In this document: in pieces, positions 1 through 54,301 of the stretch
Position numbering within the stretch: the first letter of the stretch is position 1
Layout of the letters: every line of letters begins with the position of its first letter
Origin: Raillietiella orientalis
Taxonomy: Eukaryota
NCBI GenBank assembly: GCA_036172245.1
Contig: JAYWIR010000128.1
Span: 1 to 64,000 of the forward strand
DNA: 64,000 bases
Direction: 5' to 3'
Position numbers and translations under genes: made by a program
The notes under the pieces: model-generated
The model's database searches: none
What the model saw: only the letters and a program-made list of their open reading frames with translations
Told to the model about the DNA's origin: nothing

Positions 1-29
1 TCGTGAGGTCACGTCGTATCGATCCGTCG

Positions 30-290
30 TTTGCCACCCGGATATGCCGGAACATTTATTATTCTAATTTTCTACAAAAATTAGATAATAAAGTCTTTCA
101 AAAGTTAATTGTGTGAAACACTTGACTTTCCCACCTTGGTTGACGTGTCGGTTGCCGGTGCATAGACCGGTTAGGTCCATTCCCGAGGCGCATGGGAAGG
201 GAAAACTAAAACAAAGACAAACAAAAAGAGAGATATCGGGGAGGGAAACAGTTTCATGGGGAGAGGGGGGGGGCAGGGCAGGGATCACTG
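30..290 (-). mobile_element. L1/Tx1-clade LINE, subfamily C, 3' UTR-only fragment
   Basis: Homologous to the 3' end of the element at 7895-8160. On the minus strand: AATAAA (55-60), then CCGG-N5-CCGG hairpin (38-50), then short A tail. Confidence 0.8.
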
Positions 291-492
291 CTTCTTCCGA
301 AGGGCAACCGTGCTTTCGACGAGGAGAAACGCGCAGATTGGATTGGCCCTTCACGGCGGAAAAAGTATTTTCCGCCATAGCGGGCCTGAAGAGGCGTAAG
401 GCGCCTGGGGAGGATGGCCTGCCCGCGGAGTTCTTTCAGTGCTTTGTGGCGGAGCTCGTCCCCTTGGTGCTAAGCCTTTCCTCGCTGATGCG
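288..492 (+). mobile_element. LINE ORF2 fragment (A-like; linker/RT N-terminus)
   Basis: Translates to PFTAEKVFSAIAGLKRRKAPGEDGLPAEFFQ (L1/Tx1 KAPGxDG motif). Cut at SLMR by a B element. Confidence 0.85.
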
Positions 493-909
493 TTTTGAAC
501 CCGGTCGCGCCGGGACGTTTATTTGTAAAAACGAACCACAAACTTCAAGGCAAATTCATCCTTACGAGACACAAGAAACGCCCATACAGTAAGTTCAGTT
601 CACAAAGATCAACGCAGGGTGCCTTCCAAAAGAAACGAAGGAAGGGAGAGGGATGCAGAATAAACAAAATATAAGGGTACAAACAAAAAAAACCAGTGGA
701 GAGTGGGGTCAGGTATCTTTGGTAGTAAACGTTTCTAATCTTTCTGGAAGCGCTGTTTGACAATGGCGACTTCCCTGGAGACTTTTCTGGGCAGATGAGG
801 CCACCTGACAGCTGCTTTCATAAAGTTCGCAGCGATTCTGGCGGCGTTCGTTCGCTGCGAGCTTCCTTCTTGTTTACGGCGGGCGATCACGATGGCGCGG
901 ATGCAAGAG
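493..909 (-). mobile_element. LINE subfamily B, 5'-truncated 3' end
   Basis: Homologous to 10016-10459. AATAAA (518-523) and CCCGG/CCGGG hairpin (500-514). Confidence 0.8.
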
Positions 910-923
910 GTTACTTTATCCAG

Positions 924-6134: not shown

Positions 6135-7894
6135 TGTCGAGCGCACAATACTTTGAGCCGCGAAGCAAGTTCACCGACTCGGCAGTAGAAGAGCAGTATC
6201 CCGACTGTCAAGAAGGTGACTCCATTGACGCCTCTTAAAGGCGTAGCGGAAGCAACGCTTGCAGAGAACGCAGCGAAAATTCCGGAGGTTTCCGCAACTA
6301 CTGTCGCGGAAGCCTTCGAAAATCGCGAAGGCAAATGGAAGGATGTGGAGTGGAGGAAAGAAAAATCTACAAAAAAAGCTCCGCAACATCCATCCCTGAG
6401 CTCTTCCAAAGGAAAAAGCAGTCGCGGGAATGCGAAAACACGCGCAGCTTGTGCCACTTCCAAGCAAAAAGCCAGCGGCTTCAACGCGTGCCAGTCCGCT
6501 TCTGTGACAGCCGAGAAGACCATTCCGGTGCACTCGGACGCCTGCAAGCGCACGTCGATCGTGCGATCATCAGACACCGCAAAGGAGTCCTATAGCGCCG
6601 CGACGCGTAACTCGCGCGGGAGCGAGCGCCCGCAGTGCTGAAGCCCTGAGGCGTGACACACTCGCCGTGGAACGGCGAGTGCTCACCGCGGAACCCACAG
6701 GTTCTGCACCCGGGGTGGAGCACATGATTACGTGCAGCACAGTTGAGGCCAGTGGCGACTGCGCCCTCCAGCCCGTCGTGCTTCTTACCGCCCGCTCGCC
6801 GGGTGAGGCGAGCACCACGGCCTCGCTTTCCCAGCCGTGATGAGGGCAATCGCGTCTTCTCGTCGTGTTGTTGTAACGTCTTGGAACGACAACGGGCTCC
6901 AACACGAGGAGAAAAGGCGACTAGTGGCTGACGCTCTGCGCGCCTCCGACTTGACGCTCCTGCAGGAGATTCACAGCATCTCCGGAGAGCAGGCTGCCGA
7001 AATCGAAAGTTGCGCGGGCGGAACGCTACTTTATAGGTGCGGCGTTGCACGTACGTGCGGCGTCGCTTTCCTCGTGCGAGGAACTTTGGCGGGAGCGGTG
7101 CGCAGCGTTCGTTTCGACACGGAAGGCCGAGTGGGACAGCTTGTACTCAAGTGGTCCGTCTCGATCGACCTTGTCGTTAACAACGTGTACGCGCCGAGCT
7201 GTGCTGGACAATGGGCTGGAAGGATTGAGTTTTTCGGTACACTTCAAAGCCAGTGGCTCCCTCGATCTCACCCTACTCGGCCCATCTCATTGCGAGGGAC
7301 TTTAACGTCCACCTGCTTTCCGAGAATAGATCCCACAAAAGGGAAAAGTTGCTAGCGGAAGAGATGTGCGCGTCCGTGCACGCGTGCAACTTGTTCGCTA
7401 GCGACCCTGTTATGGCAGCAACGCCGAAACACGTATACCTTGATGAACACTTGCTCTGTCGAGTGGGTCGGAGAGGTCCCGTGCCGTTTGTGCTTTCAGA
7501 TTACAACAGGCTCGAGTTCGAGTTGCTCCCGCCAGGCAAGAGGCCTCCAAACTGTTTTTGGAGGATGCCAGCAGACTGCCTAAGCCACCCGGAGGCGGCT
7601 GAGCATCTTCGCCAGTACCTCCTCGGCTTAGCCATAAGTTAGCTCGAGCACTGGGACGAACTGAAATGATCGGTCCGCGAGTTATGCTGCCGGTTTCCCT
7701 TGAACCAGCTTCCGCGCGGCTCCGAAGAGAACGTAGCCAACAGCAGAAATTTTCTGCAGGCATGCTCTCTTTCCAGGCGCGCTGACGTTGGTCGATTATC
7801 CGAGTACAAGCCAAAGGCCGAGCGCCAGGTCTGGCAGTCAGGGGCGACAGTTCTGCTCGACGACCAGGACCGAGAATGCTCAATCTAGCCGACG
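6135..7894 (+). mobile_element. LINE A-like element, part 1: ORF1 C-terminus + APE endonuclease + linker (decayed)
   Basis: Motifs VTSWNDNG, LLQEIH, TCGVAFLV, NVYAP, RDFN, LSDY and FWRMP. Left boundary approximate. Confidence 0.85.
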
Positions 7895-9782
7895 TTTCTC
7901 ACCCGGATATGCCGGGGCATTTATTATACTAATTTTCTACAAAAATTAGATAATAAAGTCTTTAAAAAAAGATGTTTTCTGTGGGGAAACACTGGGTAAA
8001 CCACCTTGCTGGACGTGTCGGTTGCCGGTGCATAGACCGGTTAGGTCCATTCTTGAGGCGCATGGGAAGAAAAAACTAGAACAAAAACAAACAACAAGAG
8101 AGATAACGGGGAAAGAAACAGTTGTATGCGGAGAGGGAGGGGGCAGGGAAGGGATTACTGGGCGCCTGGGTCGGTCCTCCGCATCCTGTTAAGGATGCAG
8201 TCAAGTTCTGCTTTAACTGAGAGAGCTGGACGCCACCTTGTCGCCGTCTCTAAAGAGAACGTCGTCCAGTGGATAACGTCCCTGCATCTTGGTCCTCTTC
8301 TTCTGGCGTGCCACCTTTGCACAATGCCGCGCACGCAGCAGAGGACTGCTAGAGACGCAGCGGGGCGCAGGCCGTCAGCAGAAAGAGGCGACGGTAAATT
8401 TCCTTAGTGTCGCCTACTGGAAGATGAAGGATTGGGGCGATTCTACTCCAGAGTCCATCCAGGGCGACACACTCGAGGGTGAGATGCGGGAAGGTTTCTC
8501 TTTTTCCGCAGTCGACACAGCGGGCTTCCACTTTCCCCAGTGTCCAGTGAGACAGGCGTGCTCTGCTTAACAGTCCCCAGTGCAGAAATAGCAACGCCGT
8601 CTCCTGCCACTTCAACGGAAGTATGCCGCAATCCCAACACGCTGGGGGCCACTTCACCTCCTTCGGAGGTATTGCGAGCAGCTCTCCCCAGCGCGCAAGT
8701 CCGTGAGGCAGGACGCTCGGGGTGGCAGCGTCCGTGAGCTCCCGAGTCGTCCACGCCTTTAAAGGTTTTTTCCTGCCTCGGATGAGGCAGGAGACTTCCC
8801 ACGATGCCAGCTCGTTGCTGCTCCTACTGTTTTTCAGGGAGGACAGAACGGGGGCAAGGGGACTGAAAGAAGCCCACAGAAACTTCCGGGGCGTGTTAAT
8901 AATCTCCTGCAGCGGCTGTCGAGCGTACGGTCCTCGTCGTAGGAAGTTGTATTCCGCGTCGCTCGTGCCGTCGATCTTAGCCCACGCGGAAGCTGACTCC
9001 TGAAGCCAGGCAGTCCAGTTCGCGGAGAGGCAGGAGATCCAGGTATTCTCCCTCATCAGGGTGACCATCTGGCGCAAATTAAGGCCACAGTTGGAGAGGC
9101 TGCGCTGGTAGGCCACGAGGATCGAGGACAATCCTTCGCAGCCGGTCGCTCTTCTGGCGAGGAGCCGTGCAGGATCGCACCATGGCGTCATCCATAAGCT
9201 AGCCGCAAGGGCTAACTTCCGAAGTGTTGTCTGTATTTGGATGCGCTCCAACGTAAGGAGGCCCAAGCCACCATCCCTGCGTGGAGCGCACAAGTCTTTC
9301 AATCGGACTCGCGACCTCGCTCTGCCCCAAAGGGCAGTCCTCAAGATGGCTTTGGTCCGTCTCTGTATGATATGAGGGGCGGTGCAAACAAAAAGTAATG
9401 GGCGTAGGAGGGGGGCCGCGAACGCGTTTACACCACGGCCCGCTCCTGCAAGTAAAACTTGCCGTTCCGGAACGGGCCGATCGCCAACTCCACCTTTTGG
9501 AGATGGTCGGACCAGGCTTCTGCAACGCAGAAGTCCCCCAACGGAACGCCAAGGTACTTGAAGCACCTGCCCGTGGGGATCCCCAAGCGGATCCAGTCCG
9601 GCCGTCCGGCCCACGCCGTATTGTTGAAAGCAGTGAAGATGTAGGAACGATGGAAGATTTCTCTTTGTTCACCTCGAGGCTTGTCCCGCGGCGCAGCAAC
9701 TCAAAGAAATCTTCGAGCGCCGACGCCAAGGTGGACCCGGGGAGCAGGAGCACAAGGTCGTTGGAGTAGGCCGACACGGCAG
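7895..9782 (-). mobile_element. LINE subfamily C, 5'-truncated (RT C-terminus, zinc finger, 3' UTR)
   Basis: SAYSNDL (degenerate YADD), GGLGL, and CVDCGKRETFPHLTLEC in ORF 8349-9614. AATAAA 7920-7925 and hairpin 7902-7916. Confidence 0.9.
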
Positions 9783-10015
9783 CTTACGGAACGAAGTCTC
9801 TCCAAGCTGCTTCTTCCGACGGGTAGCACTGCTTTCGACGAGGAGGAACGCGCCAGATGGAATTGGCACCTTAAGCGCGGAAGAAGTATCTTCCGCCATA
9901 GCGGGCTTAAAGTGGCGTAAGGCGCCTGGCGAGGATAGCCTGCCCGCGGAGTTCTTTCAGTGCTTCGCAACGGAGCTATTCCCCCGGGTGCTGAGCCTTT
10001 CCGCGCTGATGCGGT
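9782..10015 (+). mobile_element. LINE A-like element, part 2 (linker/RT N-terminus)
   Basis: TERSLSKLLLP through SALMR. Continues at 21701 after the 12-bp TSD CGCTGATGCGGT. Confidence 0.8.
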
Positions 10016-13000
10016 TTGGACCCGGTTGCGCCGGGACGTTTATTTGTAAAAACGAAAAACAATCTTGAAGGGAAATTCAACCCTGCAGGACACAAGAAAC
10101 GCCTATACAGAGAGCTCAGCCTGGAAGGAGCACCGGCACGCAGGCCGCCTTCCAAAAGAAAGGAACAGAGGGAAAAGGATACAAAATTAACAAAACACAA
10201 CAAAACAAACGAACAAACAAACAAAAAAACAAAAAAAAACACGGGAGTGTGGAATCTTTAATCTTTGGTATTAAACGTTCCTAATCTTTCTAGAAGCGCT
10301 GTTTGACAATATCGAATTGGCTGTTGACTTTTCTGGGCAGATGAGTCCACCTGACAGCTGCTTTTATAAGGTTCGCAGCGATTCTGGCGGGGTCCGTTCG
10401 CTGCGAGCTTCCTTCTAGCATACGGCGGGCGATCACGATGGCGAGGATGCAAGAGAATGTTGCGATGGCAGCGCCTTATCCAGTCCGTCTTTGCTGACGA
10501 AGCGTCGAAGCAGGTCTGTGGCAGTGTCCTGAGGTCGACAAAGTGCCGAAGCAAGTCTCCGCCATAACTCCCGCAAGTCGCTACACTCAAGGAGGAAGTG
10601 CGTAGGCGATTCTATCGCCCCGCAGCTGAGGCAGTTCGGGGAGACGACTCACCCTGAAACCAAGTTTCTGCGCTTATTCCACTAAAATCCTCAGTGCAGA
10701 AAAAGAAGAACATTTTGTTTTCATCGAAGCGGGAACACGGAGCTGTCCACAAACAAGGAAGGGACCACGAGATCTTAGGGAAGTAAACCAAGAACCTCAC
10801 TCCAACGAAGAAGTCCCTTCGCCAGGTAACGTGGAGTGGCAGCGTCTACCAAGACTCTCGTTCTGCAGCCGCTCAGCAGTCTCTCAACTCCTGCAATGCT
10901 GCAGAAGAACTTTAACCTTTCCGGTTGGCTACTGTCGTTGTTTGCCCTGAGAGCAGACAGCGCTGCGGCGTTGGGTGAGACGGCTATCCGGCACCAAAGC
11001 GACCTGTCCTGTAGGATCGCTATTAGCGGTTTGCGTAAGAGGCCCTGTAAGGGTCGCAGTTGCTCTGGGCGCACATCCGAAGTGGATTTCCAGTGCTCGA
11101 GAGCTAATTGCTGCCAAGCATTCTAATTGATGAAGCGGCAGGAAATCCAGGAAAGGGCTAACAGCAACGAGGACAAATGCCTCAGTAAGTAGCCAAATCC
11201 AGTTCTCCGGCGAAGGTTGCGCGGCAGCAAGGAAAGCAATCCTGCACTGTTGACACATCGCTGGAGAATATGGCGAGCTGGAGCACCCCAGAGAATAGAC
11301 CACAATTTACCACATAGGGATAGATGCCGAAACTGCACTTGCAGTCCAATCTTCTGGATGGTCAGGATGCCCAGGTATGCGTTCTGGCATGACGCCACAA
11401 AATCTTTCAGGCGAAACCTGGATCGCGCAGCGCTCCAAAAGCCCTTACGTGGGAGACGCTGCGCTTGGAGTTTAACTACATAGGGAGGCAAGCAAACAAA
11501 AAATAAGGGGCGGAGGACGGAGGCAAGGAAAGTGTTCCATATGCACGCCCTATCCGGCAAGACGAACTTGCCTTCTAGGAACGGGCCTAGAGCCATCTCT
11601 GCCTTTTGAAGACAGGCCGACCACTATTCAGACGAGCAGAAGTCGCCCAACGGTACGCCAAGGTACTTGTAGTACCCGACCGTGAGGATACACAAACGGT
11701 TCCAGTCGGCCTGTCCCTCCCACGACGCACCACCGGCACGACGAAGCACTTCGCCCTGTTAACGCTCATGGCCGCTCCACGACGGATCAGCTCGAAGAAC
11801 TCTTGGACCGAATGCGGCGGAGTAGACATGGGCAACAGAAGCTGAAGGTCGTCGGCGTATGCTGCCGCGGACGGAGTGCACGGAGAGGCGCTGGGCAGGA
11901 CGGCAAGCATCAGCCACTACGCTTTCAGCACCAACTCAATGAAGATGCTGAAGAGCAACGGGTTTCAGCTGTCGACCTCTCTAATGCCTCTGCGCACGGC
12001 CACACCGTACATGCGGGAGCCACTGAAATTCAAGTTGATAATCGCGTGGCGCCATCATGAGCGCAAGTACAGTAGAAGATGATTCGGAAGCCCAAGACTC
12101 TCCAGGAGCTTCAAGAGTTGTTCCTCGTTTACGCAGGTTAATCCTTTGTGCAAATATACTGCTTGTGCCAAGGCTCCCGGCCTTTCTTCCTTTCGTCCAC
12201 ACTAGCGCACGCAGTCGGCAGAAGGTCTTGCCGCTGTTCGGCTATCCGCCGCAACGCGCTCTTGAAGCTGTTACCTTGTGCGCGCGAAAAGAAGGTTCGC
12301 ATGCATGGATCTGCCCGATACAGCGTAAGACTGGTCCGGGCTTACCACGGACTCCGCGACTTTCCCAAAGCGCGTGACCTACAGCTTCGAAAACCACTTG
12401 AAGTCCGTAATCACCAATGTGATCGGACGCCAGTTGTTGAGTTGACGCAGATCCCCTCCTTTCGGAAGGAGAGGCATTCTTGCTGGACGGAAGGAAGATG
12501 GGACATCGCCCGTCACCCTCATCAGCGTCGAGAATCTATGAACCAGTGGAGCGAGTTCCGCTGCGAAGCTCTGATAGAACTCCGCGGGCAGTCCGTCCTC
12601 ATCTGGCGTCTTCCGTCTCTTGAGTCCTGCGATGGCGGAAGAAACTTCCTCTAACGTGAAGCGCTCGTCGACACGATCGCGTTCCTTCTCGACGATGCCG
12701 TGTGCAGCCCGCGGCAAAAGTAGTTCGGTGAGGACTCCTTCCGTCGAAGAATTAGCGTAGAGCAAGAAGTGACGCTTTAGTGCTCGCCGCACTTCGGCAG
12801 CAGCCGTGCATTCCCGGCCTTGGTCGTCGAGCAGAATAGCCGCTCGAGACTGCCAGACCTGGCGCTCGGCCCTCGCCTTGTACTCTGAGAGTTGCCGGAC
12901 TTCCGCACGTCTCGAGAAAATGCGCGCCTGCAGACATGCTGTGCTATTGGCCACGCCTTCCCCGAAGCCGCGTGGTAGGAGGTGCAGGGGGAACCGGTCG

Positions 13001-14530
13001 CAAAACTCGCGAACCGATATTTTAAGATGGTTCCAGTCGGCGAGTTCCCGGATGGCAAAGCCGCGAAGGAACTGGCGAAGATGCTCCGCCGCTTCCGGGT
13101 GACTCAGCCAAACCGCCGGCATCCTCCAAACATTGTTTGGAGGTCCCTTGTTCGGCGGAAGTAGCTCGAACTCCAGCCTATCATGGTCCGATAACGTGGA
13201 CGGCACCCTGCCTCTCCTTCGCACTCGCGAGAGTAGGTGTTCATCGAGGAAGTGGTGATCCACGCACCTCTCTATTCCAGGATCCCCGGCTTCCAAGTTA
13301 CGTGCGTGCAGCGACGCGCATGCCTCTTCCACCCGCGATTTTCCGCCAGGGACCTCGTCTCGTTGGAAAGCAGGTGGACGTTAAAGTCCCCTGCGACGAG
13401 ATGCGCCACTCTGGCTCCGGAGTTTCTGAGCCATTGGCTCTCCAGCACGTCGGAGAACTAGATTCCTTCGACATGCCGATGAAAGCCGCTCGACGCGTAC
13501 ACGTTCGTTACGACGAGATCGATTGAATCTGACCACTTGAGTACAAAGTTGCCCATTCGCTCTTCTTGGTCGAATCGAACGCTGCTTGCCGCTGCCGATA
13601 TCCTACTATTGACGAGAAAACCAAATCCGCACGATTGTGCAGAACCTTTTCGCCAGTACAGGGTGCCACCCGCGCGCTGTTCGATTTCGGCAACCTCCGC
13701 ATCGGAGATGTAATGCATCTCCTGAATGATGGCCAAATCGAAATGTCGCAGGGTATCTGACACGTCGCTCCTCTTTCCGTCCCTGCGCAGCCCATTGACG
13801 TTCCAACAGGCCACGCTGAATCGACGAAAAAAGGCTACTTCCTGCATTAAGGCTGGGAAGGTGAGCACAGATTTCTCGTCTTGTCCGGCGAGTGGTCACG
13901 AGACAGAGCGGTCGATCTCGGAGACTGAACATCTCCATTCTAAGCCGCACTGCTTGTTGCCGGTAGCTCAGAGGTGAGGTCCTTTTCCTCCTCTTTGCTC
14001 CCCAACAACAGTTGCTCCTCGGCAACCACACGCTTGCGGGTTTCCGGGAGGCGCTTGCGCGGTTTCGGGCGGTTGTCGCGCTGTGTGCTCTTCCTGTCGG
14101 ACTCTGGATCAGAATCCGACAGTCGAGGGCTTGCCAGGCGCTGCAGCTGTTTCCGGGAATTAGGGAAATCGTTTGCTGCCTGTTTTGTAGCGCTTTTTGA
14201 AACTGCGGCTGGGACTTTCGTCCTTTTAGCCGCAGCAGCAGCTTCCCGCTCCAGCCGCGAGAGGACGACTGCGCAGGAGGAAAGAATCGCAATCTTTTTC
14301 TGGGAAGGTATCGCGGATTTCTTTCGCCCACTCACCTTCACACAGAGCTGCGAAGACCTTGATGGTTTCTTTCTAATGATCTTTCTCACCTGCATCCAGC
14401 CGTCTTCCTTCTCGTCGCAGTTATCTTTGCCATCCTGAAATGGCGTTGCTTCCACGGATGTAAGAGCCGTTGCCTTGGCTTCATCTTGGAGTGCTGCCCC
14501 GCGCAGGCGTAAGCAACTCCCTAAGCGATC
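10016..14530 (-). mobile_element. LINE subfamily B, 3' part (ORF2 + ORF1 C-terminus) of a full-length copy that continues at 20230-21700
   Basis: EN (VACWNVNG, QEMH, NVYA, GDFN, LSDH), RT (NWRPITL, AYADDL) and 3' hairpin 10021-10035. Confidence 0.9.
10258..13847 (-). pseudogene. ORF2 (APE endonuclease / reverse transcriptase) of B element, fragmented
   Basis: ORF pieces 13458-13868, 12379-13332, 11587-11910 and 11123-11596 carry the EN and RT motifs in order. ATG lies in the TAATG overlap at 13845-13849. Confidence 0.85.
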
Positions 14531-14680
14531 GCGAGAGCCTTGCGCACGGGCAATATCGCCGCCGCTGAACGAAAGGGAGGCGTGATTATTGCTAGTTTAA
14601 AACTATACCCAATACCCCGCCAAGGCAGTGTTTAAAACCACTGCCAAGGCAATTTTTGAGTGCCCTGAGGAGGCAAGTGT

Positions 14681-16339
14681 TTGAGTGAACGCCAGTGTGG
14701 AAAGAGTGCAACCGGAACCATCAGCAGCAGCAGCAGCAGCGCCGAGAAGTCCACGGTGGAAGTCCTGCAGTCGTCCCGAGCAGCCGCAACAGCTGCCAGG
14801 ATGCAGGCATCTGGGGTTGGAGGAGTGGTGAGGCCATCGTCCCCCATGGAAGCCATGGAGGTAACGTGCGGCAACGGCGAGGTGGCGGCAGGCATGCCGA
14901 GGATCGCGCCCGCGGCGGACCTTGCTGCGCCGGCGGCGACGATGCCATGGGTAGTGTTCGCAGCGGCGACGCCGAGGATCGTGCCCGCGGCGGGGAAGGT
15001 CGCGCCTGCGGCGGCGATGCCGAAGGTGCCGCACGCGGCGGTAACGGCGGCAACGTCGAGGTTTGCGCCCGCTGCGGCGGCTTCCCAGGCGAGACCCGCG
15101 GGCGTCCACGCGGTGCAGGGAGCGACGCCATCTTGTTCGGCTGCGGCGTCCCAGCCCTATTCTTATGCGTCGGTGGCGGCTCGACAGGCGAGTGTCAATC
15201 CACCTAGGAAATTTGGTAAGCCGCTTAGCAGAAAAGTTCTAAAAGTGGACCGACCAATAATCCAAATAGGCACCAACGTGAAGCCCATTATCTTCAAGAC
15301 CGGGCTAATAAAATTTAAGAACATCAGGGAGGTCTACTTGTCCCTCGACAAGACGGACATAGACTTTGATCGCATTCAGGCGATCATTCCATCGAACAAC
15401 CGGTTCACAGTCTTTACAGACTGTGAAAACATTAGAGAGCGATTGATCCAGAAGGGGATCAATATACAAGGACGGATGGTTTGTGGTATTGGCGAGATGC
15501 CATACACAAACGTCTTTTTAAATGGCATCTCCATCCTCACACCGCAACTAGCGGTGTGGAATCACTTGGAGCAGTTTGAGGAAGCTCTGGACCTTGATTT
15601 CCAGAACTTCTCTGGAAACATATTTTCTGGCGACATGATCGCCAAGATGAAGTTGAGGGAGGGAGCGGTGATCCCTGGATTGGCCGTTATTGACGAACAA
15701 TCCCAGGGAGTGAATGTGCGTTACCGGCAACAACCGGTATTCTGCAACGGGTGCAAGCAGTTCGGCAACAGGGCCGGCGCTTGCCCAACTTGCCGCTGCT
15801 TTCGCTGCGGCAAAGTAGGACATCAAGTCCGAAACTGCCCGCAGCCGGAGGTGTGCTCCTTCTGCAAGAAACACGGACATGCGAAATGGAGCTGTCCGGA
15901 GTTTGAAAACTGCAGAAGGATTCGAGGTCTCTCTCCCGGGAGAGAGAGTAACATCAAGGAGGCCGAACAGCCTCAGAAAGCAGGAAAGCCGAAGAAGCTG
16001 AAAGAAGCCGTCCCGGTGTCGGCAAACGGCTTCATAGAAGTGGGAAAGAAGGGAAAGAGGAGGATGCTCGTCAAGGAGCAAGGAACTCCTCATATCCTGG
16101 AAGCAGCAGAGCAGGAAGGCGAGAAGATGGACGTAGCGCAGGAAGGCCGGAAGGAAGAGAGACAGGAAGCCACTAAAGTGTCGCAGGAGGCTCTGCAGAC
16201 CACGGAGGAGTTGACAACACTGGCGGAGGAGATCATGGAGATGCAGAGCGGTCCTCAGCAAGAGAAAATCTTGCAGAAGATCTGCACTGCACAAGAGAAC
16301 ATCAACCAGGTTGTGGAGGTAGCTGAACGCGAGAAGTAA
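14681..16339 (+). CDS. ORF1 (gag-like nucleic-acid-binding protein) of H element: Ala/Pro-rich N-terminus, RRM-like core, 3 CCHC-type zinc knuckles, coiled coil
   Basis: 552-aa ORF with CNGCKQFGNRAGAC, CFRCGKVGHQVRNC and CSFCKKHGHAKWSC. The same frame continues to 16564, so the TAA at 16337 may be premature. Start codon uncertain. Confidence 0.8.
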   Translation: MSERQCGKSATGTISSSSSSAEKSTVEVLQSSRAAATAARMQASGVGGVVRPSSPMEAMEVTCGNGEVAAGMPRIAPAADLAAPAATMPWVVFAAATPRIVPAAGKVAPAAAMPKVPHAAVTAATSRFAPAAAASQARPAGVHAVQGATPSCSAAASQPYSYASVAARQASVNPPRKFGKPLSRKVLKVDRPIIQIGTNVKPIIFKTGLIKFKNIREVYLSLDKTDIDFDRIQAIIPSNNRFTVFTDCENIRERLIQKGINIQGRMVCGIGEMPYTNVFLNGISILTPQLAVWNHLEQFEEALDLDFQNFSGNIFSGDMIAKMKLREGAVIPGLAVIDEQSQGVNVRYRQQPVFCNGCKQFGNRAGACPTCRCFRCGKVGHQVRNCPQPEVCSFCKKHGHAKWSCPEFENCRRIRGLSPGRESNIKEAEQPQKAGKPKKLKEAVPVSANGFIEVGKKGKRRMLVKEQGTPHILEAAEQEGEKMDVAQEGRKEERQEATKVSQEALQTTEELTTLAEEIMEMQSGPQQEKILQKICTAQENINQVVEVAEREK

Positions 16340-16599
16340 AAGGAACAGCATCGCGACGTGAAGGCGAACTTCTGCACCAAGGTCGAGATAGAGGCGCTAT
16401 CTCGAAAATTGATCGCGCGGGCAAAACACTTTACGGAGGAGGTGGAAATTACCGACCTCACAGGTACGGAGAGTGACGCCGGCAGCAAAAAGCCCGCTGC
16501 TTCTTCGACGTCTGGAAGAGCACGCTCTCCCAGACAGAAGAAGCTAAGGAAGGCCAAGAAATAGGTCTTCCCCTTTTACGACCTCTTCCCTATCGACCG

Positions 16600-19500
16600 C
16601 CAGGAGGCTGAACATCCCCTTCTGGAACGAAAGCGCTGTGGTCGACCAGGGAAAAAGAAGAAGGATTGTGCGGACCATCGCACAACAAGACATCGTGTGC
16701 CTGCAGGAGACCCACTGGATGGGTCTCGAGATCAGCCAGCGAAGGAAACGGCGATTCAACAAGCAGATGTTCGTCAGCGAAGGAGAACGGAACACGAAGG
16801 GTGTGGCGGTGATAATAAAGAATTACTTAGCCCCCCCAATATTCTAGAAGTTTTCTCTGCTCAACCCGGACGAACCATCGGCGTGCGACTAGCCTGGTCC
16901 GCAACTGTTCACCTTATCCTGGGGAACGTGTACGGGCCGCACAGGCTAAAACATCGTTGTGCGGAGGCGCCGCATGCAGCACTCCGGCAAAAGGTCCCCT
17001 CTAAAGGCGTCGTAATTGTTGCTGGCGATCTCAACATCTTGGATGAGATCATTCATTCAGAAGACGTCAGAGGAAGGACAGCGTATCGACGGCTATCCGA
17101 CGAGTTCGGACCGGTCTGGCGTACAGCAAGTCACAAGTCGATCGATCACGTCCTGTACAGTTCCGAACTTGGGAACCGCATCCAGTGGTTTTGCGACACT
17201 ATGACTACGATGTCCGATCACCCCCTGGTGCGGTTTTTCCTAAGAACGGAGAATCCTTGGCGGAGGCAAGGCACCAGGGCGGCGCTCTTCAGCATGCCCG
17301 CCTGGTGCGAAACCCATCATGGACATCAGGCTGTCCTGGAGACGATTCTGAAGGCAACAACAATCCGAAGTCGCCGACTGGGACAGCCTGCAACACAGGA
17401 TACACCTGTTTGCGAACATGCAGTTCGGCGATAGGCGCTTGAGGCACGAGGCTTACCGGGAGCTGAACATCCAAGATCGCTCCGTCTCAAAGTACTTCGA
17501 TCAGTACGAGAGTAGGTACGTCCTCAATAGCATAAAAGGGGAAGTCGGCGTGCTGGAGAAGAGAAATCTGGCAACAGATATCTTCTGCATCCATTACGAC
17601 GGCCAAAAGCCGCAGTCGTCTGAGGACATCGTGGATGCCTTTCACAGGCAATATACGAAACACTTCAGGCGACAACATCTGTGTCGCTCTAGTCAACAGG
17701 CCTTCTTGAGCTGTCTCGAGAAGAGGACCGACGACCTCCAACGGAACAGACTGGAGGAGGAGTTCTCCGAAGAAGAGGTGAAGACTGCGTTTGGGCAACT
17801 TCGCAAGGACGTGGCAGCGCGCCCTGACAGTGTACCCATCACGCACTATCAGCGGTACCTGCACGCCTACCTGCGCTTGTTCCACCAGTTAATCCTCTGC
17901 ATCCAAGAAGAAGGTAGACTACCTCAGTCCTACGAGATTCGGATGAGATTGTTGCCAAAAGAAGCCGACCTCACGCAGGTCGCTCAATGGAAGCCAATCT
18001 CGATCCTGAACTCCGATGCCAAGTGGATGGCGAAGATCTGGTTCAACCGCTTAGGCAAGGTCATGTCGATGCTGATCTCTCCGGTGCAGACATGTGCAAT
18101 CTCAGGAGGACACATGTCGGACAATGTCAAGTGTGCCCAGGCCACTGTTGGACTCAGTCGATACGTCGGCGAGAAACTGGTGCTGGTGTTCACTGACATG
18201 GAGAAGGCTTTCGACTCCATCGACCACGGGATGCTCCTGAAGGTTCTGGAGAAGCTAGGGCTTCCGGAACACTTCAGCAACTTCGTGAGGATGGTACTCC
18301 AGAACCAGTACTGCCAAATCAAGATCAACGGCCAGGAGGCGGCAGCAATCAGGATGGAACAAGTAGTCCGAAAGGGCGACTCGCTATGTCCGATGCTGTT
18401 CGTCATCTATATGGAGGAGTTGTCGTCCTATATCGAGAAGAGCGGACGACTGAGCGGGATTACCAATGATGGCCAGCGTCTTATCCATCTGGCATACGCC
18501 GATGATCTACTCTTCTTCATCAAGAAAGACAAAAATCAGCGTGCGTTTCTGGATGTGGTGGACCTGATGGAACAGGGCTTGGGCTTAAAAATCAATTCCC
18601 AGAAGAGCCAGCTTTTGCCCGTCGGAATCCTGAATCTCTCCACACTAACGGGTAGTGGATTCCGTACGGTGGACACGGCCAAGTACCTGAGAGTCTACAT
18701 CGGAGACGACTCTGCGTCGAAGCTGCTGTGGAAGGAAATACTGGGGAAAACGGCCAAGGAAGCAGCCAAGTACACCCGAACGGACCTTGGGATGAAGCAT
18801 AAAGCCAACATATGGAACGGAGTACTCCTTCCGAAAGTGCTCTTCGGGGCGGCCTTCGCGAGGATGAACAAGGACACTACTAGGGAGTTCGACAAGCTGC
18901 AAAGAAAAACACTCTGGGGCCACTATCGCCCAAGAGTAAGACTGAAACCCCTGTGTCGTCACCAGGGAAGAAGGCGGTTCCGGGATGAAGTCGCTTGCAC
19001 ATTCCATGGAAATCATGGATACGCGACACATCCTGGACATTGCCACTTACTGGGATGATTGGCTGTATGCGGCGCACAGCGCCGACGCGTTGTTGCTTAA
19101 CAACTCGAAAGGCCTGATGACTGCGCTGCTAGGCAAAATAGGGGAATGGATAACAATCGACCCGACCTGGAAGAGGAAGGAACGGCTGGTGCGGAAGCAC
19201 CAAATCAAGATCGTGCCGCGAAGCAGGGAACTACGGCAGGACGAGTCCATTCTAGTGATCCCTTGGATGCTTCGTGGGCCGCCGGACACGAGAAGCTGGA
19301 TCTACCAGCGGTTCAGAGTTACCCTACTGGAAATCCAGGAGTGGAGGCGAGGAAGCTACCTACATCAAACTCGTATACTTCGGTATACAGAGATGATGTT
19401 AGGAAGGTTTACCCACAGGACCCGCGAAGTGTGGTTCAACCACAACGACTTCGCATGGTCGAGGGTAACCAGAACAAACCTCCGAAGGCTTATCTAAGAA

Positions 19501-20154
19501 AACGACCGTGACATCAGTGCCCTCCAGGAAGCCACCGAACGCTACGGGAGTAAACGGTTCAACCTGTTAGCGATCGGCACGACGCTCTAAAGGAGTGACC
19601 TTCCGCCGGGCACCCAGGACGACCTCCTGATGTTTTATCACGGAGGAATCCAGAGTGGGTCCCGATTGCAGCACTTCACAGGAAGACGGGAAGACCGAGA
19701 CTGCGCAGCATGTGGAGACGACGACACGAGACTTCACGTCTTGACGTGTCCCACACTGCTGTATGACTGGCTGATCCTGAAAAGGATCAAAGGACTTACC
19801 AACAAATGCGTTATGGAGATCCTCGCCGGAATGTTCCATGGGGATGGTAATGTTCGCTGTTACAATCCCATGGTGAGGACGACCATAGCCCTCCTCATCA
19901 CCGCCATACTTGTGCGGTGGTGGAAAATGAGGAAAGCCAGGAGAGCCGCACCACTGATGGAGATCCTACAAGAGCTCTTGAAGAGGGAAATCGGCATCAG
20001 GAACTGCGGGAAGATCCACGCCTGGACGTACCGATTCATCCTGAAGAGTTTCCAGGACGACGCCCGGGACCATCCAGCTGGAATTCCCCCCTTGAAAAGC
20101 AGAACTCTAGTGCAACTCAAGGACCCCAAAGTGCAAAATGTGTGTATTGAGTGA
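16600..20154 (+). pseudogene. ORF2 (EN-RT-zinc finger) of H element, frameshifted
   Basis: Motifs CLQETH, GVAVII, NVYGP, AGDLN, IDH, SDH; KPISILNSD, DMEKAFD, KGDSLCPMLF, AYADDL; CAACG...HVLTC. Frameshifts near 16830, 17370-17420 and 18960; stops at ~19495 and 19588. Confidence 0.9.
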
Positions 20155-20229
20155 ATGAGAGTGAGAATGTAAATATTGTATTTTTATAGAAAAATAAACT
20201 TACCCCACCCCTTGTGGGACTTGGGGAAA

Positions 20230-21700
20230 CTTAGCGATCAGGAGAAGCGCTGCCTCTTGCAGATCTTAGGGTTCGCGCGTTGCCTTTGCGACCGCTGGGG
20301 GCACTGCTGCAGCGGTTTTGCTCTCCCTAGCAGTTTCTTCCTTGGCCGCAGTAGGCGCTGCGTACGCGCGAAAGGACTGCGGGTTTGCCGGCTGTTTCTT
20401 CGCGGCACTCGGCGCTTGGTGCACATTGGCCGCGGTAGCTTCAGACGACGCAGAGTTCTTTGTTCGCGTGCGAGTTTTTCTTGTATCAGGCGAACGACCG
20501 CAATCCGCGCCGCTCCTCGAGGCCTTGGAACGAGGCTTCGCGGTCGTGATGCCGACAGCAGGAGGCTTTTCGTCCTTCGGCACGATGTCTCCTGCTTTCA
20601 ACAATTGGCTGCGAGGTCTCGTAGAAAGGTCGCATTCTTCGCGAGCTTCCTTCGGGTCGATAGCCAAAGGGTTTCCCGCGACGAGGTTTTTTTTGTTTTC
20701 ACCCCTTTTTTGTAGTGGTGAGAAACGGTTTTCTCCACGTTCGTGGTCGCGGTTGTCGCAACGCTTTTCGAAGCTTTGATCTTTCTTTCCCTCGATTCGC
20801 GGTGATTATTCCGCGATGCATACGCGATTCGTTCCTGCGCTTCTCGTTTTTTAAAAGGAGCTCGGGGCACGTTCCTTTAGTGTGCCCGTGCTCGTGGCAG
20901 TTACGGCAAGCGGCCAAGAGACACTACGTAATGCGGTGACCCTCCTGCCCGCATTCCGCGCATACACGCGTTTTCCCGGCAAACCACAGACAGACGGTCA
21001 TTCCATCCACCTGCAGTCGCTTGGGCATTGCACGGCGATCCGTCATCGTCTCTCGCACTTGCGCGAGCCCGCTGTGGTGGTCTTCGAACCCTTCAGCAGG
21101 GTTTGGCAGCCTCCAAAGCGCTTGGACGGTGGCGAATTTTTCAAGGGCCTCTACGACCTGGCAGTCCGAAAGGCCCTTACACACTTCACTCAGATGGGCA
21201 ACGAACGAATGGTCCGTTGTGGCAGGGAGTATTTCATGCCCACGAATAAGCAGCGGCGTGTGCAACAAACGCTTGCTGGACACCTCCCAGTAGCCGCAGT
21301 TACTCATGGGCATGACGGACTCCAGTTGGCCTTTTTGAACTCCAATCCGTTGAAGTTCCTGGCCAGACTCGCGCCCAACACGCTCAGGCATAAGAACACT
21401 TACCTTATGCCTGAGTGCAGGCGTGTAGCCATTTGCTACATACGCCTGAAGCTCATGGCTGTCGGGCGAAGGTCCCATGGTAGCCTCGAGGGCAGCGACA
21501 TGGGCGAATGTCCTCGCTGTCGACGAGGACAGAGGCTCCTTTCTAGCAGCAAAGAAGCCATCTCAGGAGCAGGTGGCGTTCCCTTCTTGCGGCTGATGTT
21601 GTTCTTTGCTCCCATTGCAGCGCAGAAGCACAGCAGAACAAAAACACACAAGAGCCAATCTTCCGCGAAGCGACGCAAAAGCACGTCCATACGCGACACA
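20230..21700 (-). mobile_element. LINE subfamily B, 5' part (5' UTR + ORF1 N-terminal half)
   Basis: ORF1 core with knuckles CAECGQEGH and CRNCHEHGHTKGTC. GGACGTG 5' motif at 21682-21688. TSD at 21701-21712. Confidence 0.9.
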
Positions 21701-23520
21701 CGCTGATGCGGTAGACGGGAGATGTTCCCGCGTCCTTCCACTCAGCAAAGGTGCGGCTTTTGCCGGAAGGCGGAAATTTGCGCTACCTTAACAACTGGTG
21801 TCCGATCACCTTGGTGAATTCGGACGTCAAGTTGTTCTCCAGGCTATGGGTCGCGCGCCTGGGGAGAATCGCAGAGTCCTTGGTAAGTCCGGAGCAGAAG
21901 TATGCTGTTCCGGGGCGGTCCATGGACGCGAATCTCTTCTTCGCACAAACTTAGGCGCTTACAGTTCAGCAGAGGCGTGGTCGGACTGCCTTCACAAGGC
22001 CCAGACTGCTCTGGGCCCGTTTCGAAGCGGCAAATTCCACCTGTGGTAATGGACCTTCGTGTGGAACATTTTCGTTGCCCTCCTCCTCCGTCCCCTTTTT
22101 TTTGTTTGTCCCCCTCCCTACTCGTCTAAGCGCCGGGCGCAACGCCTGTTGCGAAACGCCTTGTGGGGACCGGCGTGATCCTGAATTCGTCTCAAGGACT
22201 TGACGGCTCCTCGGCGGAATGCAGGATTGGGGATCCTGACACTGGAGCGGATTGGACTGCAAGTGCAGTTTCGCATGCTGGCCCTTGGGGGCCAGCTATC
22301 AACTACTACCTGGTGTGCCCCAGCGCGGTTGCTGCTGCGCCGCTGCACGGGTGGCGACCGACTACGTTCCTTGCACCTGCGCAGGGAGCGCGTCCAGAGA
22401 GGATTCGGCTTCCCCCTGAAGCAGCTCTCCTCGCTTCTAGGGAAGCATTCGTGAATATCATGCCGGCCGACGAACTTCAACGCCTGGAGGCAGAAAGCCT
22501 TAACGTCCTGGGCAGCGCAAATCGATGTGTCCCGTTTGCAACTTCGTTGCGCAAACATTTCCCCATACTGTCCAGTGAAGGAGGTGCTGAAAGACCAGGA
22601 CCAGTGGACACGCCTACTTGCTACGCCCCTCGCCGAATCACTGTCTGCACCGATGGTGCGAGACGACAGTGACCTACCGGCGAGGTGGAAGGTCGCTTGC
22701 GAAATCGCAATTGCATCCCGACTGCTGAGTGGCTGGAGGACTTGCGAGCTTACAGACGCTGCCAAGGCTCGCCTTCGTGCGAAGGGACTTCTCCGATGGA
22801 GCGAGCTCCTGGGAATGCCCATCAAAGAACTTGTGGTCCCTTCTGCGTGCTTGGACGCAACTGTGTTTCATCTTCGGTGGAAAGAGGACGCTTTTCTGCT
22901 GGTTCATTGGGGTTTGTTCTGTAACCAGCGCGCGCAACTGATTTCCGGGGGAGTTGCGTCCCCGAACTGTGCAAATTGCGGAGCAGTGGAATCGCTTCCG
23001 CATTTGCTGTTTGAATGGGGTGCCCTCCAGGAGTTGTGGCGGCGGCTGTCTTGAGCGCTCCTGCACCCCGGACACACCGCACTCGATTAAAATGCGCCGC
23101 TTCTTAACGCGTGGCGGTCTTTCTCTTGGAGCGGTTGTGGCAATCATCTGCTGCGTCCTTGCCATTGTCAGGGCCCGCCACGTATTCCAGATGCGAACGT
23201 TTCCATCTTCAGTTCCTGACACTTCAGCCGGCAACCTGCAAATGGCTGCCGAATGGCCGCACCTCGGTACAAAACTAAGGACGGAGATTGCCGGCATTAA
23301 GCGCCGGTTTTGAGAAAAGTAACGGCTATACTGCATACCCCAATCCCCATCCTCCCACCTTATTTATTTATTTATTGTCTGCTCTCCCTCCCGTTCCGAA
23401 CTCTCAATGTGCCCGCCCTGCGTGCCAGGTACCCTCCTATCGATCTTCTGTTCCCCTTGTTCATGAAACCATTCCTTAGATGATTTTATCAACAAACGTC
23501 CCGGCGCAACCGGGTAATAA
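21701..23520 (+). mobile_element. LINE subfamily A, part 3 (RT with internal deletion, zinc finger, 3' UTR)
   Basis: Colinear with 51873-54301 except for a ~630-bp deletion of the RT core at ~21950. 3' hairpin 23500-23514. Confidence 0.9.
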
Positions 23521-24714
23521 ACGACAACGCAGCATTCTTTTATCGGCTCGTTTGCTTGCAACTTTTGCTGGCAGTACGCGAGCTCTTTCTCTAGTTTCCT
23601 GTCCTTCTTACTCTTTTTGGCTGTTACCACCTGCCACTTAAGCTCCTGGCCGTTTTCCTCAAACTTTTCAGCGGTGTTCGCCGGGGTCTCGGTTGCTGCC
23701 TGGGCCTTAGGTGCGGGTGTCACAGCCTTCGAGGCAGCTTTCGCCGCCAGCCTTTTCTGTAGCAACCGGGCGAGCTTTTTGAGGTTTCTCTTCGAAACCA
23801 ACCAAACCGCTGCTTTTGGACACACCTTTCGCGTTTAGCCCCTTGTCCCGCAAACCTGGCACTGCCGATTGAAGCACCTCTTTTTGAGATGGCCCGACGT
23901 ATTGCAGAAGCCGCAGTATTGGGGTTTCCCCACATACCACAGGTCGACGGTTTATACGCCGACCACTAGTTTGTGGGGAAGAGTGCAAACCTCACGAACG
24001 GTGACGCGTGCAGCCGTGAGGCCGTGTTGGAGCCTCGTATAGTCCTCGAAAGGACTAGGCATCGACCACTGCGCGTGGACCGTGCCAAATGCTTCTAGTG
24101 CCGCGTGAACCTGTTCTTTACGCATTCGCGCGGTCACGCCTAATAGGTGGACCACCATGCTACGGTCCACCGTAATGGGGAGGAGCCTGCGCTTCTTCAT
24201 CACAACGGGGATTTTGAGCAGTCGTTGGGCCAGCTCTGGTTGTTTGCAGATGACCTCAACGTACTGACCCCCTCTGCGGATGGTCATAGCGCTGAGCTCT
24301 TCCTCTTGAACATTGAGAGCGCTCATCCCCTTCGAGAAGGCGCGCGCACTCTCTGAACAATAGAGATTGCCTACGTTGTAGAGCAATGAGGGGTTACAGC
24401 CCTCCTCCACGTAGGCACATAATTCCGCCGCGGCTGCAGACGATTGCGCCGACACAACGGCGCTCCACGCCGGCTGCAGCGGTGACCGATTCTGTGGGGG
24501 CGGATGCCCCCACCTCCATTGCCTCTGATGGAGATGCTGTTGCCGCTACCTGGCTCTCCATCGCCTCTGGGGGCGGAGTTGCCGCTGTATCCTGGCCATC
24601 CCTGGTGGTCGCGTCAAGCATCGCTGCCTAATCGACCACCGAACCACACGACGCTAGCACTAGAGGAGACTTCCTGGCACGCAGACCACCGAGAAAACAC
24701 GTCCGCCCTCAAGC
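23521..24714 (-). mobile_element. LINE subfamily D, 5' end + ORF1 up to the CCVVV site
   Basis: ORF1 23952-24455 is homologous to other D copies. GGACGTGTTTT motif at 24694-24704. Confidence 0.85.
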
Positions 24715-24729
24715 GCATAAGGCGTTCGA

Positions 24730-44138: not shown

Positions 44139-44153
44139 GCATAAGGCGTTCGA

Positions 44154-48523: not shown

Positions 48524-48601
48524 GACGTGTTCTGTGTTGCTCCTCGAGCGTGATTCCTTTCCGTCTTCTTGTGTGTGGTGTGCCCGAGTGCGTCCACTGG
48601 G

Positions 48602-50548: not shown

Positions 50549-53500
50549 TGCGTGGACTCGCGTCCGCTCGTCGTGTCAGCGTGGCCTGTTGGAATGTCAA
50601 CGGGCTACGTGATGCTGACAAAAGGCGGACGGTAGCCAACGCTTTGCGCGCGTTCGATCTGGTGCTGCTGGAGGAGATACATAGCATCTCCGTACGGCAG
50701 GCATCGGATCTGGAAGAGCGCGCGGGCGGGACGCTACACTGGCGGCAAGGCTACGCTCACACGTGCGGAGTCGCGTTCCTCGTCCGAGGCAGGGTGGCGG
50801 AGGCGGTGCGGAACGTTTGTTTCGAGGAGGAAGGTCGTGTGGGCCAACTTGTCCTCAAGTGGTCCGAATCGATAGAACTGGTCGTTACGAACATCGACGC
50901 GCCGAGCGGCGGCCGGCATTACGCCTAGCGACTTTCATTCCTGGGTGGCCTGCGCAGCCGCTGGCTCGCTGACTCCGGCCCTAACGTGGCGCGCTGCCTT
51001 GCAGGAGACTTCAACGTCTACACGCTAACAGAGGAGAGATGCCGCTTGAGGGAGAAGCAACTGGTGATCGAGGTATGCGCGTCCGTGCGCGTGCATAACT
51101 TGCTTGCTGTTGAGCCCGGGATGGGGAGATCGCCGGACCATGCGTTCCTCGATGAACACCTGCTCTCACGAGTAGGTCTTACAGGGCGCCTGCTGTCCGC
51201 TATTTCGGAACATCCTGGACTGGAGTTCGAGCTCCTCCCGCCTGGCGAAGGGCCTCCGATGAATGTCTGGAGGTTGCCGGCCGACTGGCTTAGCAATTCG
51301 GAAGCGGCGGAGCATCTCCGCCAACACCTCCGGGGCTTCGCCATCTGTGAACTCGAGGACTGGGACGATCTGAAAAGATCGGTCCGCGAGTTCTGCTGCC
51401 GGTTTCCCTTGCACCTGCTTCCCCGCGGCTTCGGGGAGGGTGTCGCGAACAGCAGATCCTATTTGCAGGCGCGTACCATTTCCCGATGCGCGGACGTCCG
51501 GCGTCTGGCGGAGTATAAGGCGAGGGCCGAGCGCCAGGTTTGGCAGTCTGGAGGGGCTTGTCTGCTCGATGACGCTAGCCAGGAATGCTCGACTGCAGCC
51601 AAAGTACACCGCGTAGTCAAGCGCTACTACTCCTCGTTGTACGCGGCGGAGCCCACGGAACGCAGTCTCTCCGAGCTGCTTCTTCCGACGGGTAACCCTG
51701 CTATCGACGAGGAGGAACGCGCCAGATTGGTTTGGCCCTTCACGGCGGAAGAAGTATCTTCCTCCATAGCGGGCCTGAAGAGGCGTAAGGCGCTGGGGAA
51801 GGATGGCCTGCAAGCGGAATTCTTTCAGTGCTTCGCGGCAGAGCTCGTACCCCTGATGCTAAGCCTTTCCTCGCTGATGCGTGAGACGGGAGATGTTCCC
51901 GCTTCTTTCCGCTCAGCAAAGGTGCGGCTCCTGCCAAAAGGCCGTGATTTGCGCCACCTCAGCAACTGGAGTCCGATCACATTGGTGAATTCGGACGTCA
52001 AGTTGTTCTCCAGGCTAGGGGTCGCGCGGTCGTCCTTGGTAAGTCCGGAGCAGACGTATGCTGTTCCGGGGCGGTCCATGGACGCGAATCTCTTCTTCGC
52101 GCAAACATGGTTCGAGTTGCAGCAGCGCGTGGCGCAGCAGAGCCAGGCAGCCGAATTCGCCGCTGCTAAAGAAAAGCGGCGGTGTTCAAGGCACGATGGA
52201 ACGCCGGGAGCCTTAGCGGTCGCAGTCGATCTCTGCAAAACGTTCGACAGCGTAAACCAGGACCTCCTTCTGGAGCTTCTGGGACGCCTAGGGCTCCGGA
52301 CGCACCTCATCGCCTACTTGCGCTCCTGCTGGCGCCACGCGTTATTCTGTATCTCTTTTAGCGGGCGTTACGTTTACGGTGTTCCTATACAGCGGGGTAT
52401 CTGGCAGGGAGACAGCTTAATCCCCCTGCTATTCAGCATCTTCTTTGAGTTGGTGCTGAGGGCGTACAGGCTGACGCTGGCCAACCTGCCGAGCTCCTGC
52501 CCGGGAACACCGGCCGCGGCCGCCTATGCTGACGACCTTCTCCTGCTGCTGCCCATGTCCACCCCGGCGTCCAGGCTCGAGGACTTCTTCGAGATCATTC
52601 GTCGGGGAGCGGGCCTGGGCGTGAACAGGACGAAATCAACCGTTGTACTGGTTGGCTCTACGTGGGAGAGGCAGTCCGACTGGATCCGCCTGGGGATCCC
52701 CACGGGCAGGTGCTTGAAGTACCTCGGCGTTCCCTTGGGCGCATTTTGACCAGCAGAAGCGTTATCGGACTGCCTTCACAAGGCCGAGGATGCTCTGGGC
52801 TTGTTCCAAGGCGGCAGGTTTCTCCTGTCGGAACGGGCCTTCGTGTGGACCATTTTCGTTGCCCCCCTCCTCCGTCCCCTCTATTTTGTTTGTCCCCCTC
52901 CCTACTCGGCTAAGCGCCGGGCGCAACGCCTGTTGGGTAACGCTCTGTGGGGACCGGCGAGGTCCAGGATACGCCTGAAGGACTTGGCGGCTCCTCGGGG
53001 CGATGCAGGATTGGGCATCCTGACGCTGGAGCGGATCGGACTCCTAGTGCAGTTCCGCATGCTGGCACTTTGTGCGCAGCTCTGGACTACTCCCTGGTGT
53101 GCTCCAGCGCGGCTGCTGCTGCGGCGCAGCACGGGTGGCGACGGACTACGTTCGTTGTATCTGCGCACGGAGCGCGCCCAGAGAGGATTCGGGTTCCCTT
53201 TGAATCAGCTCTCCTCGCTTCTGGGGAAGCATTCGTGGATCTCCTGCCGGCCGACGAATTTCAACGTCTGGATTCAGTAAGCCTTATCGTCCTGGGCAGC
53301 GCAACAGGATGTGTCCCGTTTGGAACTCCGTTGCGTGAAACTTTCCCCATACTGTCCAGTGGGGGAGGTGCTGGAAGACCAGGACCAGTGGAAACGCCTA
53401 GCCGCTACGCCACTCGCCGAAGCACTGTGTGCACTGATGGTGCGAAATGACAGTGACCTGCTGGCGAGGTGGGAGATCACTTGCGAAATCGCAGGCGAAA

Positions 53501-54096
53501 CCCGACTGCTGGGCGGCTGGCGGACTTGCGAAATGGCAGACGCTGCCACACCTCGCATTCTCGCAAAAGGGCTTCTCCGGCGAAGTGAGCTCCTCGGGGT
53601 GCCCCCTGATGAACTTGTGGTTCCTTCTGCGTGTTTGGACGCGACTCTCTTCCCCCTTCGGTGGAAGCAGGACGCTTTTCTGCTGGTGCATTGGGGTTTG
53701 TACTGCATCCAGGAGGCGCACCTGATTTCCGGGGGAGTGGCGTCCCCGAACTGTGACAAATGCGGAGCGGTGGCATCGCTTCCGCATCTGCTGTTTGAGT
53801 GCGGTGCCCTCCAGGAGCTGTGGCGGCGGCTGTGTTCTGCGCTCCTGCACCCTGGACACACCGCACTGGATTGGATGCGCCGCTTCTACACGCGTGGCGG
53901 ACCTTCTCTTGGAGCGGTCGTCGCAATCATCTGCTGCGTCCGCGCCATTATCAGGGCCCGCCACGTATTGCAGATGCGAGCGTTCCCAACATCGGTCCCC
54001 GACACCGCAGCCTGCAACCTGCAAATGGCTGCCGGCTGGCCACATCTTGGAGCAGAAGTGATGACGGAGATCGGCGGCATTCACCGCCGGTTCTGA
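50548..54096 (+). pseudogene. ORF2 of A element (APE endonuclease, reverse transcriptase, zinc finger); one frame of ~1180 codons with three nonsense mutations
   Basis: ORFs starting 50533, 50986, 52801 and 53311 share a frame. Motifs WNVNG, GDFN, DLCKTFD, QGDSLIPLLF, AYADDL, KYLGV and CDKCG...HLLFEC. Confidence 0.92.
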
Positions 54097-54301
54097 GAAT
54101 AGGAACGGTCAGACTGTATACCCCTGTCCTCGCCCTTCCACCCAGTTTATTTATTTATTGTCCCACTTCCTCCCGTTCCGAACTCTCAGTGTGCCCGGAC
54201 TGCGCTCCGGGAAATCTACTCCCCATTTTCTGTTTCCGTTGCCTGGGAACACAGTTCTGAGTTGATATTTTTATAAACGTCCCGCCGCAACCGGGTAATA
54301 A

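Follow-up and report, generated by a model that had tools for sequence, protein, structure and literature searches.

R1, TRAS and SART are site-specific long interspersed nuclear elements (LINEs). Transposons are also among the known targets of LINEs in the excerpted text of PMC5035012. According to excerpts of PMC4494074, Tx1 inserts into the piggyBac-type transposon Tx1D, Tx1-Mar and SINEU-3 into Mariner-N4_AMi, Tx1-9_AMi into Harbinger, and Tx1-8_Crp and Tx1-4_AMi into long terminal repeat (LTR) elements. In green algae the L1-type LINEs Zepp and ZeppL insert into copies of themselves and mark centromeres (excerpts of PMC3446292 and PMC8226300). Here we describe a nest of LINEs from Raillietiella orientalis (genome of 210 Mb in 491 contigs). 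It lies in a stretch of 64,000 nucleotides, positions 1 to 64,000 of contig JAYWIR010000128.1 (assembly GCA_036172245.1), which we call the window. In it one LINE, H, sits within a second, B, which itself interrupts a third, A. A survey of the genome with these families and two others, C and D, makes it likely that the LINE families land at fixed sites in one another's coding sequences, in a loop from A into D, D into B and B into A.

Like the target-specific Tx1 LINEs in those excerpts, the families described here combine an apurinic/apyrimidinic (AP) endonuclease with a reverse transcriptase (RT), have a transposon as target and a fixed orientation, and leave target site duplications (TSDs) and tandems that sandwich a TSD. 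They differ from the excerpted Tx1 LINEs in that they enter coding motifs of other LINEs, the families so entered target others in turn, and the links form a loop; the absence of a poly(A) tail is another difference. The piling of L1-type LINEs into nested clusters by way of existing LINE copies resembles Zepp and ZeppL. However, Zepp is described in the excerpts as one family entering its own copies, mostly as 3' fragments and in one cluster per chromosome, whereas none of 29 B 3' ends, leaving tandems aside, lay inside another B, and B is often full length and occupies one base of a different family. With R1/R2 and TRAS/SART the families share a single-base target in a multicopy sequence and partial occupancy (about 22% of A sites here), but those elements target host ribosomal DNA or telomeres and not rival retrotransposons. 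The R2 endonuclease is also of a different type (excerpts of PMC5035012). A LINE targeting another transposon is known, and the mutual LINE-LINE loop through coding motifs is a new twist. A literature search found no mutually targeting LINE families, though subscription papers, Repbase and the supplements of PMC4494074 may hold cases.

Anatomy of the nest

The elements, open reading frames (ORFs) and duplications that make up the nest are listed by window position.

9786..10014, + strand: left piece of LINE A, RT region ending in LSLSALMR; left side truncated by element C; 85% identical to intact A at 51655-51881
10004..10014, + strand: left copy of the 11-bp TSD of B (CGCTGATGCGG)
10015..21700, - strand: LINE B, full length, antisense to A; about 5.98 kb without H; colinear with H-free copies
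10015..10050, - strand: 3' end of B, with AATAAA, the hairpin CCCGG-N5-CCGGG and three A, no poly(A)
10400..13895, - strand: ORF2 of B, with AP endonuclease, RT and a C-terminal Cys motif; frameshifts and stops; low end approximate
13940..21570, - strand: ORF1 of B with CCHC knuckles, split by H, from the ORF list
14522..14537, + strand: left copy of the 16-bp TSD of H, from nine empty B sites
14538..20230, + strand: LINE H, full length, antisense to B, in ORF1 of B
14669-16339, + strand: ORF1 of H (CCHC; zf-CCHC above the Pfam cut-off)
16548-20154, + strand: ORF2 of H (endonuclease, RT)
20231..20246, + strand: right copy of the TSD of H, 12 of 16 bases identical to the left copy
21701..21711, + strand: right copy of the TSD of B
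21712..23520, + strand: right piece of LINE A up to its 3' end, 83-85% identical to intact A; deletion of about 645 bp near 21950
23521..24729, - strand: 5' part of LINE D (ORF1), with the 3' end of A inserted antisense; single surviving junction
494..909, - strand: short 3' piece of a second B, at the A base used by the first
51872..51882, + strand: empty B target in an uninterrupted full-length A (about 48525-54301), itself inside ORF1 of D

B lies within the RT gene of A, with its 5' end at 21700 and its 3' end at 10015. When H and one copy of its TSD were excised in silico, a B of 5,977 bp was left, which aligned over positions 6-5974 at 89% identity to a B on contig C76 that lacks H; identity to three further H-free copies was 85-91%. 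Once B was excised in turn, A aligned without gaps to the intact A at 51.8 kb, with 124 of 150 columns matching. A sequence-only reading of the window had proposed a B of about 6.0 kb without H, hosts that become colinear once H and then B are removed, and the order A, then B, then H. The two excisions bear this out, and the order also agrees with the falling distance from the family majority in this window (0.099 for A, 0.048-0.086 for B and 0.03 for H).

Other details of that reading needed revision. It gave B a perfect 12-bp TSD, and CGCTGATGCGGT indeed occurs only at 10004 and 21701 on the + strand of the window. However, the left 12th T is part of the terminal TTT of B, present in nearly all copies, and the right 12th T replaces a G of uninterrupted A, so the TSD of B is 11 bp long (10004-10014 and 21701-21711). 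H does have a TSD, but one of 16 bp with 12 identical bases in place of the suggested 12 of 15. The host frame rejoins in register across B as proposed, but a stop falls at the junction (LSLSALMR*TGDVPASF); the missing stretch of A begins about 240 bp downstream of this junction. The second B 3' end, reported at the same host base, begins at 494, directly after CGCTGATGCGT (483-493), and the hint that this base is a reused site is borne out by the genome-wide survey.

The full order of the nest is probably D, then A, B and H, because the 3' end of A at 23520 adjoins ORF1 of D; the left junction of A is lost. Elsewhere in the window, a full-length D (44143-55472, - strand) holds the full-length A in its ORF1, an empty version of the D site that A occupies lies near 4511-4552, and D-D head-to-tail junctions are found at 44143 and 24719. 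A 5'-truncated LINE C (7894-9783, - strand) has an A-like family (70% identical to A) as its 3' flank and A as its 5' flank. These mismatched flanks suggest recombination between nests. Positions 1-23542 of the window also have a 23.5-kb inverted copy on the same contig (C128, 58477-82050) at 98.9% identity, possibly an assembly fold-back or a very recent inverted duplicate. The B/H copy near 60.3 kb belongs to this mirror and was rejected as an independent insertion.

The landing site of B across the genome

To survey the 3' end of B we searched the genome with its last 245 bases; 40 of 86 candidates were listed and 30 loci fetched, 29 of which were counted after the mirror was dropped. The junction lies antisense at A position 3356-3358 in 21 of the 29. 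Another five are B-B tandems, arranged head to tail with the target at their junction, and three are in unrelated DNA. At the 5' end, all 30 fetched loci (from 68 candidates; one is the mirror) adjoin the right half of the same A site. Each B end matches 40 listed genome copies. Exact 23-mers counted 29 empty against nine filled A sites, one of the latter being the mirror, an occupancy of about 22%.

Two off-target copies of B (C6 and C8) are truncated at the 5' end and flanked by TSDs of their own, one of 17 and one of 15 bp, ending GCGG or GAGG(T). Another B sits in an A-like family 69% identical to A, with a 25-bp TSD. The off-target copies with their own TSDs, together with the copy in the A-like family, indicate that B moves on its own. 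A Pfam search of the ORFs beside the C8 copy gave no useful name. About 6 kb from an off-target B are what we take to be host gene fragments (L168:4100-5976, - strand), one presumably like a MARCH-type E3 ligase, for which Pfam gave no confirmation. Such a fragment would fit an animal host.

B carries its own version of the target, with one or two base differences, and this was uninterrupted in 20 of 20 hits among the fetched copies. At 22% occupancy the chance of 20 empty sites is about 0.007. That B avoids its own version of the site is only suggested, since A is the older of the two families. Lineages of full-length B differ in roughly the first five bases, and the next stretch is fixed (window 21690-21700; tandems L011, L012, L014, L024 and L025). 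A GGACGTG motif is found close to the 5' end of A, B and D.

A network of targets

We also read the 3' flanks of H, A, D and C, taking the 20-30 top-ranked of 86-776 candidates for each. H (n=29) was found nine times in ORF1 of B, nine times at a second fixed site, GCCGAGTCGGCGATGG, eight times in tandem with H-like copies and three times elsewhere. The second fixed site lies in a weakly A-like element, which H enters antisense, at loci L068, L070, L076-L078, L081, L082, L090 and L092. The H-H tandems start with the same ten bases. For A (n=30), 15 flanks are at D 1136-1140 and one at D 1262, six are antisense in D-like or A-like ORF1s, three are tandems and five are unassigned.

D (n=20) lands at the KAFD codons of B (B 3851) in six cases, at the KAFD codons of A in one and at the same KAFD position of A-like RTs in three. 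Two more D flanks are otherwise antisense in related RTs, one is a tandem, four are sense elsewhere and three are unassigned. The C sample (n=20) comprised ranks 3-23 minus one contig-end match (C87). In it, 11 flanks are at one endonuclease-RT linker site of A-like elements, one is in H, five are sense elsewhere and three are unassigned. The links make a loop in which A enters D, D enters B and B enters A, and A and D also target each other.

In excerpts of PMC4494074, a LINE is called target-specific if one sequence type makes up over 20% of its flanks. Among our top-ranked copies every family exceeds this share, the main target accounting for 21 of 29 flanks for B, 15 of 30 for A, 11 of 20 for C, nine of 29 for H and six of 20 for D. 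All five main targets are entered antisense. Assigned non-tandem flanks are antisense in 76 cases and sense in 10, counts that are not independent trials because the families are related.

Proposed mechanism

The mechanism we propose starts from the observed anatomy, TSDs, empty sites, repeated use of the sites, their several origins and the orientation. B would nick the coding strand of A after CTGATGCG(T/G) in the RT gene and prime cDNA synthesis there, so ending antisense between TSDs of 11-12 bp. The TSD would rebuild the target, and a later B could then insert beside the earlier one; the head-to-tail B-B tandems are attributed to this rebuilding. H would act likewise in ORF1 of B, and A in ORF1 of D. 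The KAFD codons of B and of A would serve D in this way, and the linker between endonuclease and RT in A-like elements would serve C. The loop from A to D to B and back to A would keep supplying targets, and LINE-only clusters would grow from within, block copying and recombination adding further copies. We infer that the AP endonuclease carries the specificity, each recognizing perhaps ten bases of which the three to five nearest the nick would matter most. In excerpts of PMC4494074, LINE target choice rests mainly on the endonuclease. Nesting may also benefit the element or the host.

Site-specific LINEs are usually seen as hiding in host repeats where they are safe; the LINEs described here land in the coding motifs of their competitors. 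The loop would be a simple engine for LINE-only heterochromatin and offers a direct test of transposon conflict. A, B, C-like elements and D have RTs 55-66% identical and different targets, and so would form a matched set of AP endonucleases for studying a change of specificity, which bears on tools for site-specific gene insertion. A more speculative extension, which we think rather doubtful, is a closed-loop conflict. In it the endonucleases would cut rival motifs that are hard to change (RT motifs such as KAFD, and ORF1 motifs), insert antisense to break the rival and make antisense RNA, and avoid their own site. The self-renewing clusters with their 276-bp satellite could then be centromeric or heterochromatic blocks.

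Repeated insertion and its alternatives

Thirty-two longer loci were fetched to test whether shared junctions were inherited. A tree built from 37 H 3' segments scatters the 16 that lie in B among copies at other targets; H-in-B as one clade was rejected by the approximately unbiased (AU) test (p 1e-68), with at least three changes forced. The 13 B copies with H did not form one clade in a 21-copy B tree either (AU p 3e-64). As the trees reject a single origin both of H-in-B and of B-with-H, the sites have been used repeatedly. Private TSD variants are present on both sides of insertions: both this window and C13b have a GG allele, and C101 has TAGCTATCG at its H site. At C13b a young H (0.021-0.035 from the majority) lies in an old B (0.115-0.133). 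Of the diagnostic sites flanking H in this B, 19 of 21 on one side and 37 of 42 on the other still have the alleles of the old lineage, the nearest sites being 351 and 49 bp away. The old alleles on both flanks of the young H argue against gene conversion. At C13a a young B (0.015) lies in an old A (0.146). Left/right covariation of the first H TSD bases was not clean (three of 13 loci differ) and was left unused.

Several points weigh against independent insertion at endonuclease-chosen sites. Each search yielded 68-776 candidates, of which flanks were read for the top 20-30, ranked by similarity to the window, and three truncated B copies (C88, C13c and C11) have no TSD. Recombination can also cause trees to disagree. 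Contig C99 matches window 8470-9855 at 97-100% over 1.4 kb, junction included, and then switches; the C32 and C76 tandems pair in both the A and the B trees; and most B 5' junctions are letter-identical, as they would be after block copying. Together with the inverted mirror on the contig, the last three would fit a history in which segmental duplication, unequal exchange and gene conversion made many copies of a few ancestral nests, whose junctions were inherited. We consider this improbable, and as the sole cause it is largely refuted by the tandems joined through a TSD, the off-target copies with their own TSDs, the private two-sided TSD variants, both AU tests and the young H in an old B, flanked on either side by old alleles. 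Moreover, A inside D together with D inside A and B cannot derive from one nest. Alternatively, B and H could move as a composite RNA, an 11.7-kb unit that H entered once. Many B copies have H at the same base, and a clade of 12 H-in-B copies (support 98/93), which also counts against repeated insertion, may be explained in part by such a unit; yet H-in-B occurs in several H lineages and in two B lineages, and we regard the composite as highly improbable in general.

A different objection accepts independent insertions and assigns their specificity to read-through RNA and region instead of the endonuclease. B transcripts would pass their weak end into the TSD, the tail would pair with the nicked target, and clustering in heterochromatin would add to the effect. 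The off-target B sites match the target only in the three to five bases adjoining the junction, so a short core with regional preference or RNA-DNA annealing could suffice. The lack of poly(A) and the precise 3' junctions in every family fit as well, and 30 of 38 B matches lie either on small contigs, which make up about 11% of the assembly by interpolation, or no more than 350 kb from a contig end, as a regional preference would have it. Co-transcription with the target strengthens R2 targeting in excerpts of PMC4494074. However, the same base must still be nicked if read-through RNA guides the insertion. D and C also use homologous motifs in several diverged families. We hold this account to be possible but on the unlikely side, and such annealing and regional preference may supplement an endonuclease-based explanation. 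From the trees and junctions we concluded that the sites were hit several times independently, with block copying adding part of the copies.

What the elements are

By their sequences, A, B and H are L1/Tx1-like non-LTR LINEs, an assignment that follows from the Pfam AP endonuclease, RT and CCHC knuckles and from human L1 ORF2p as the closest solved protein. The latter is the best solved match of the RTs of A (E 1e-29) and H (E 1e-33), against 1e-11 and 2e-20 for R2. B was assigned through its Pfam hits and the 64% identity of its RT to that of A; the RTs of B, D and C-like elements are 55-66% identical to A, and that of H 28%. In this window Exo_endo_phos in ORF2 of B (13461-13895) is below the curated Pfam cut-off, and in one B copy (L159) both it and RVT_1 are above. 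L159 also has an unbroken ORF1 frame of 555 amino acids. An ORF1 with CCHC knuckles upstream of ORF2 is found both in H, with zf-CCHC above the cut-off, and in L159, where it is below. The elements also bear marks of target-primed reverse transcription, namely TSDs of 11-25 bp and 5' truncation, with truncated copies flanked by TSDs at C6 and C8.

Homologue searches gave no named close relative. One returned identities of 22-27%. In the other, two unnamed proteins are 62-63% identical and the rest of those listed at most 39%, with no named Tx1 reference among the listed library proteins. Of ten that were looked up, two are hypothetical proteins of a pseudoscorpion. The homologue matches assign the elements neither to Tx1 nor to L1.

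A 3' poly(A) tail is usual for the L1/Tx1 group. The 3' ends of A, B, C and D instead have AATAAA, a 5-bp hairpin and two to four A, and that of H is similar; none has poly(A). Taken one by one against shuffles, the 3' hairpins were not significant (z -1.9 to +0.6). AATAAA with a short hairpin, mostly CCCGG-N5/6-CCGGG, is found at 3786, 7925, 10044, 20193, 30874, 54270 and 57584 of the window, with shared stems and differing loops. The window as a whole is a mosaic of related repeats. Within its LINE cluster a 276-bp satellite array (33341-43468; 36.8 copies, about 40% GC) has D-family sequence on both sides.

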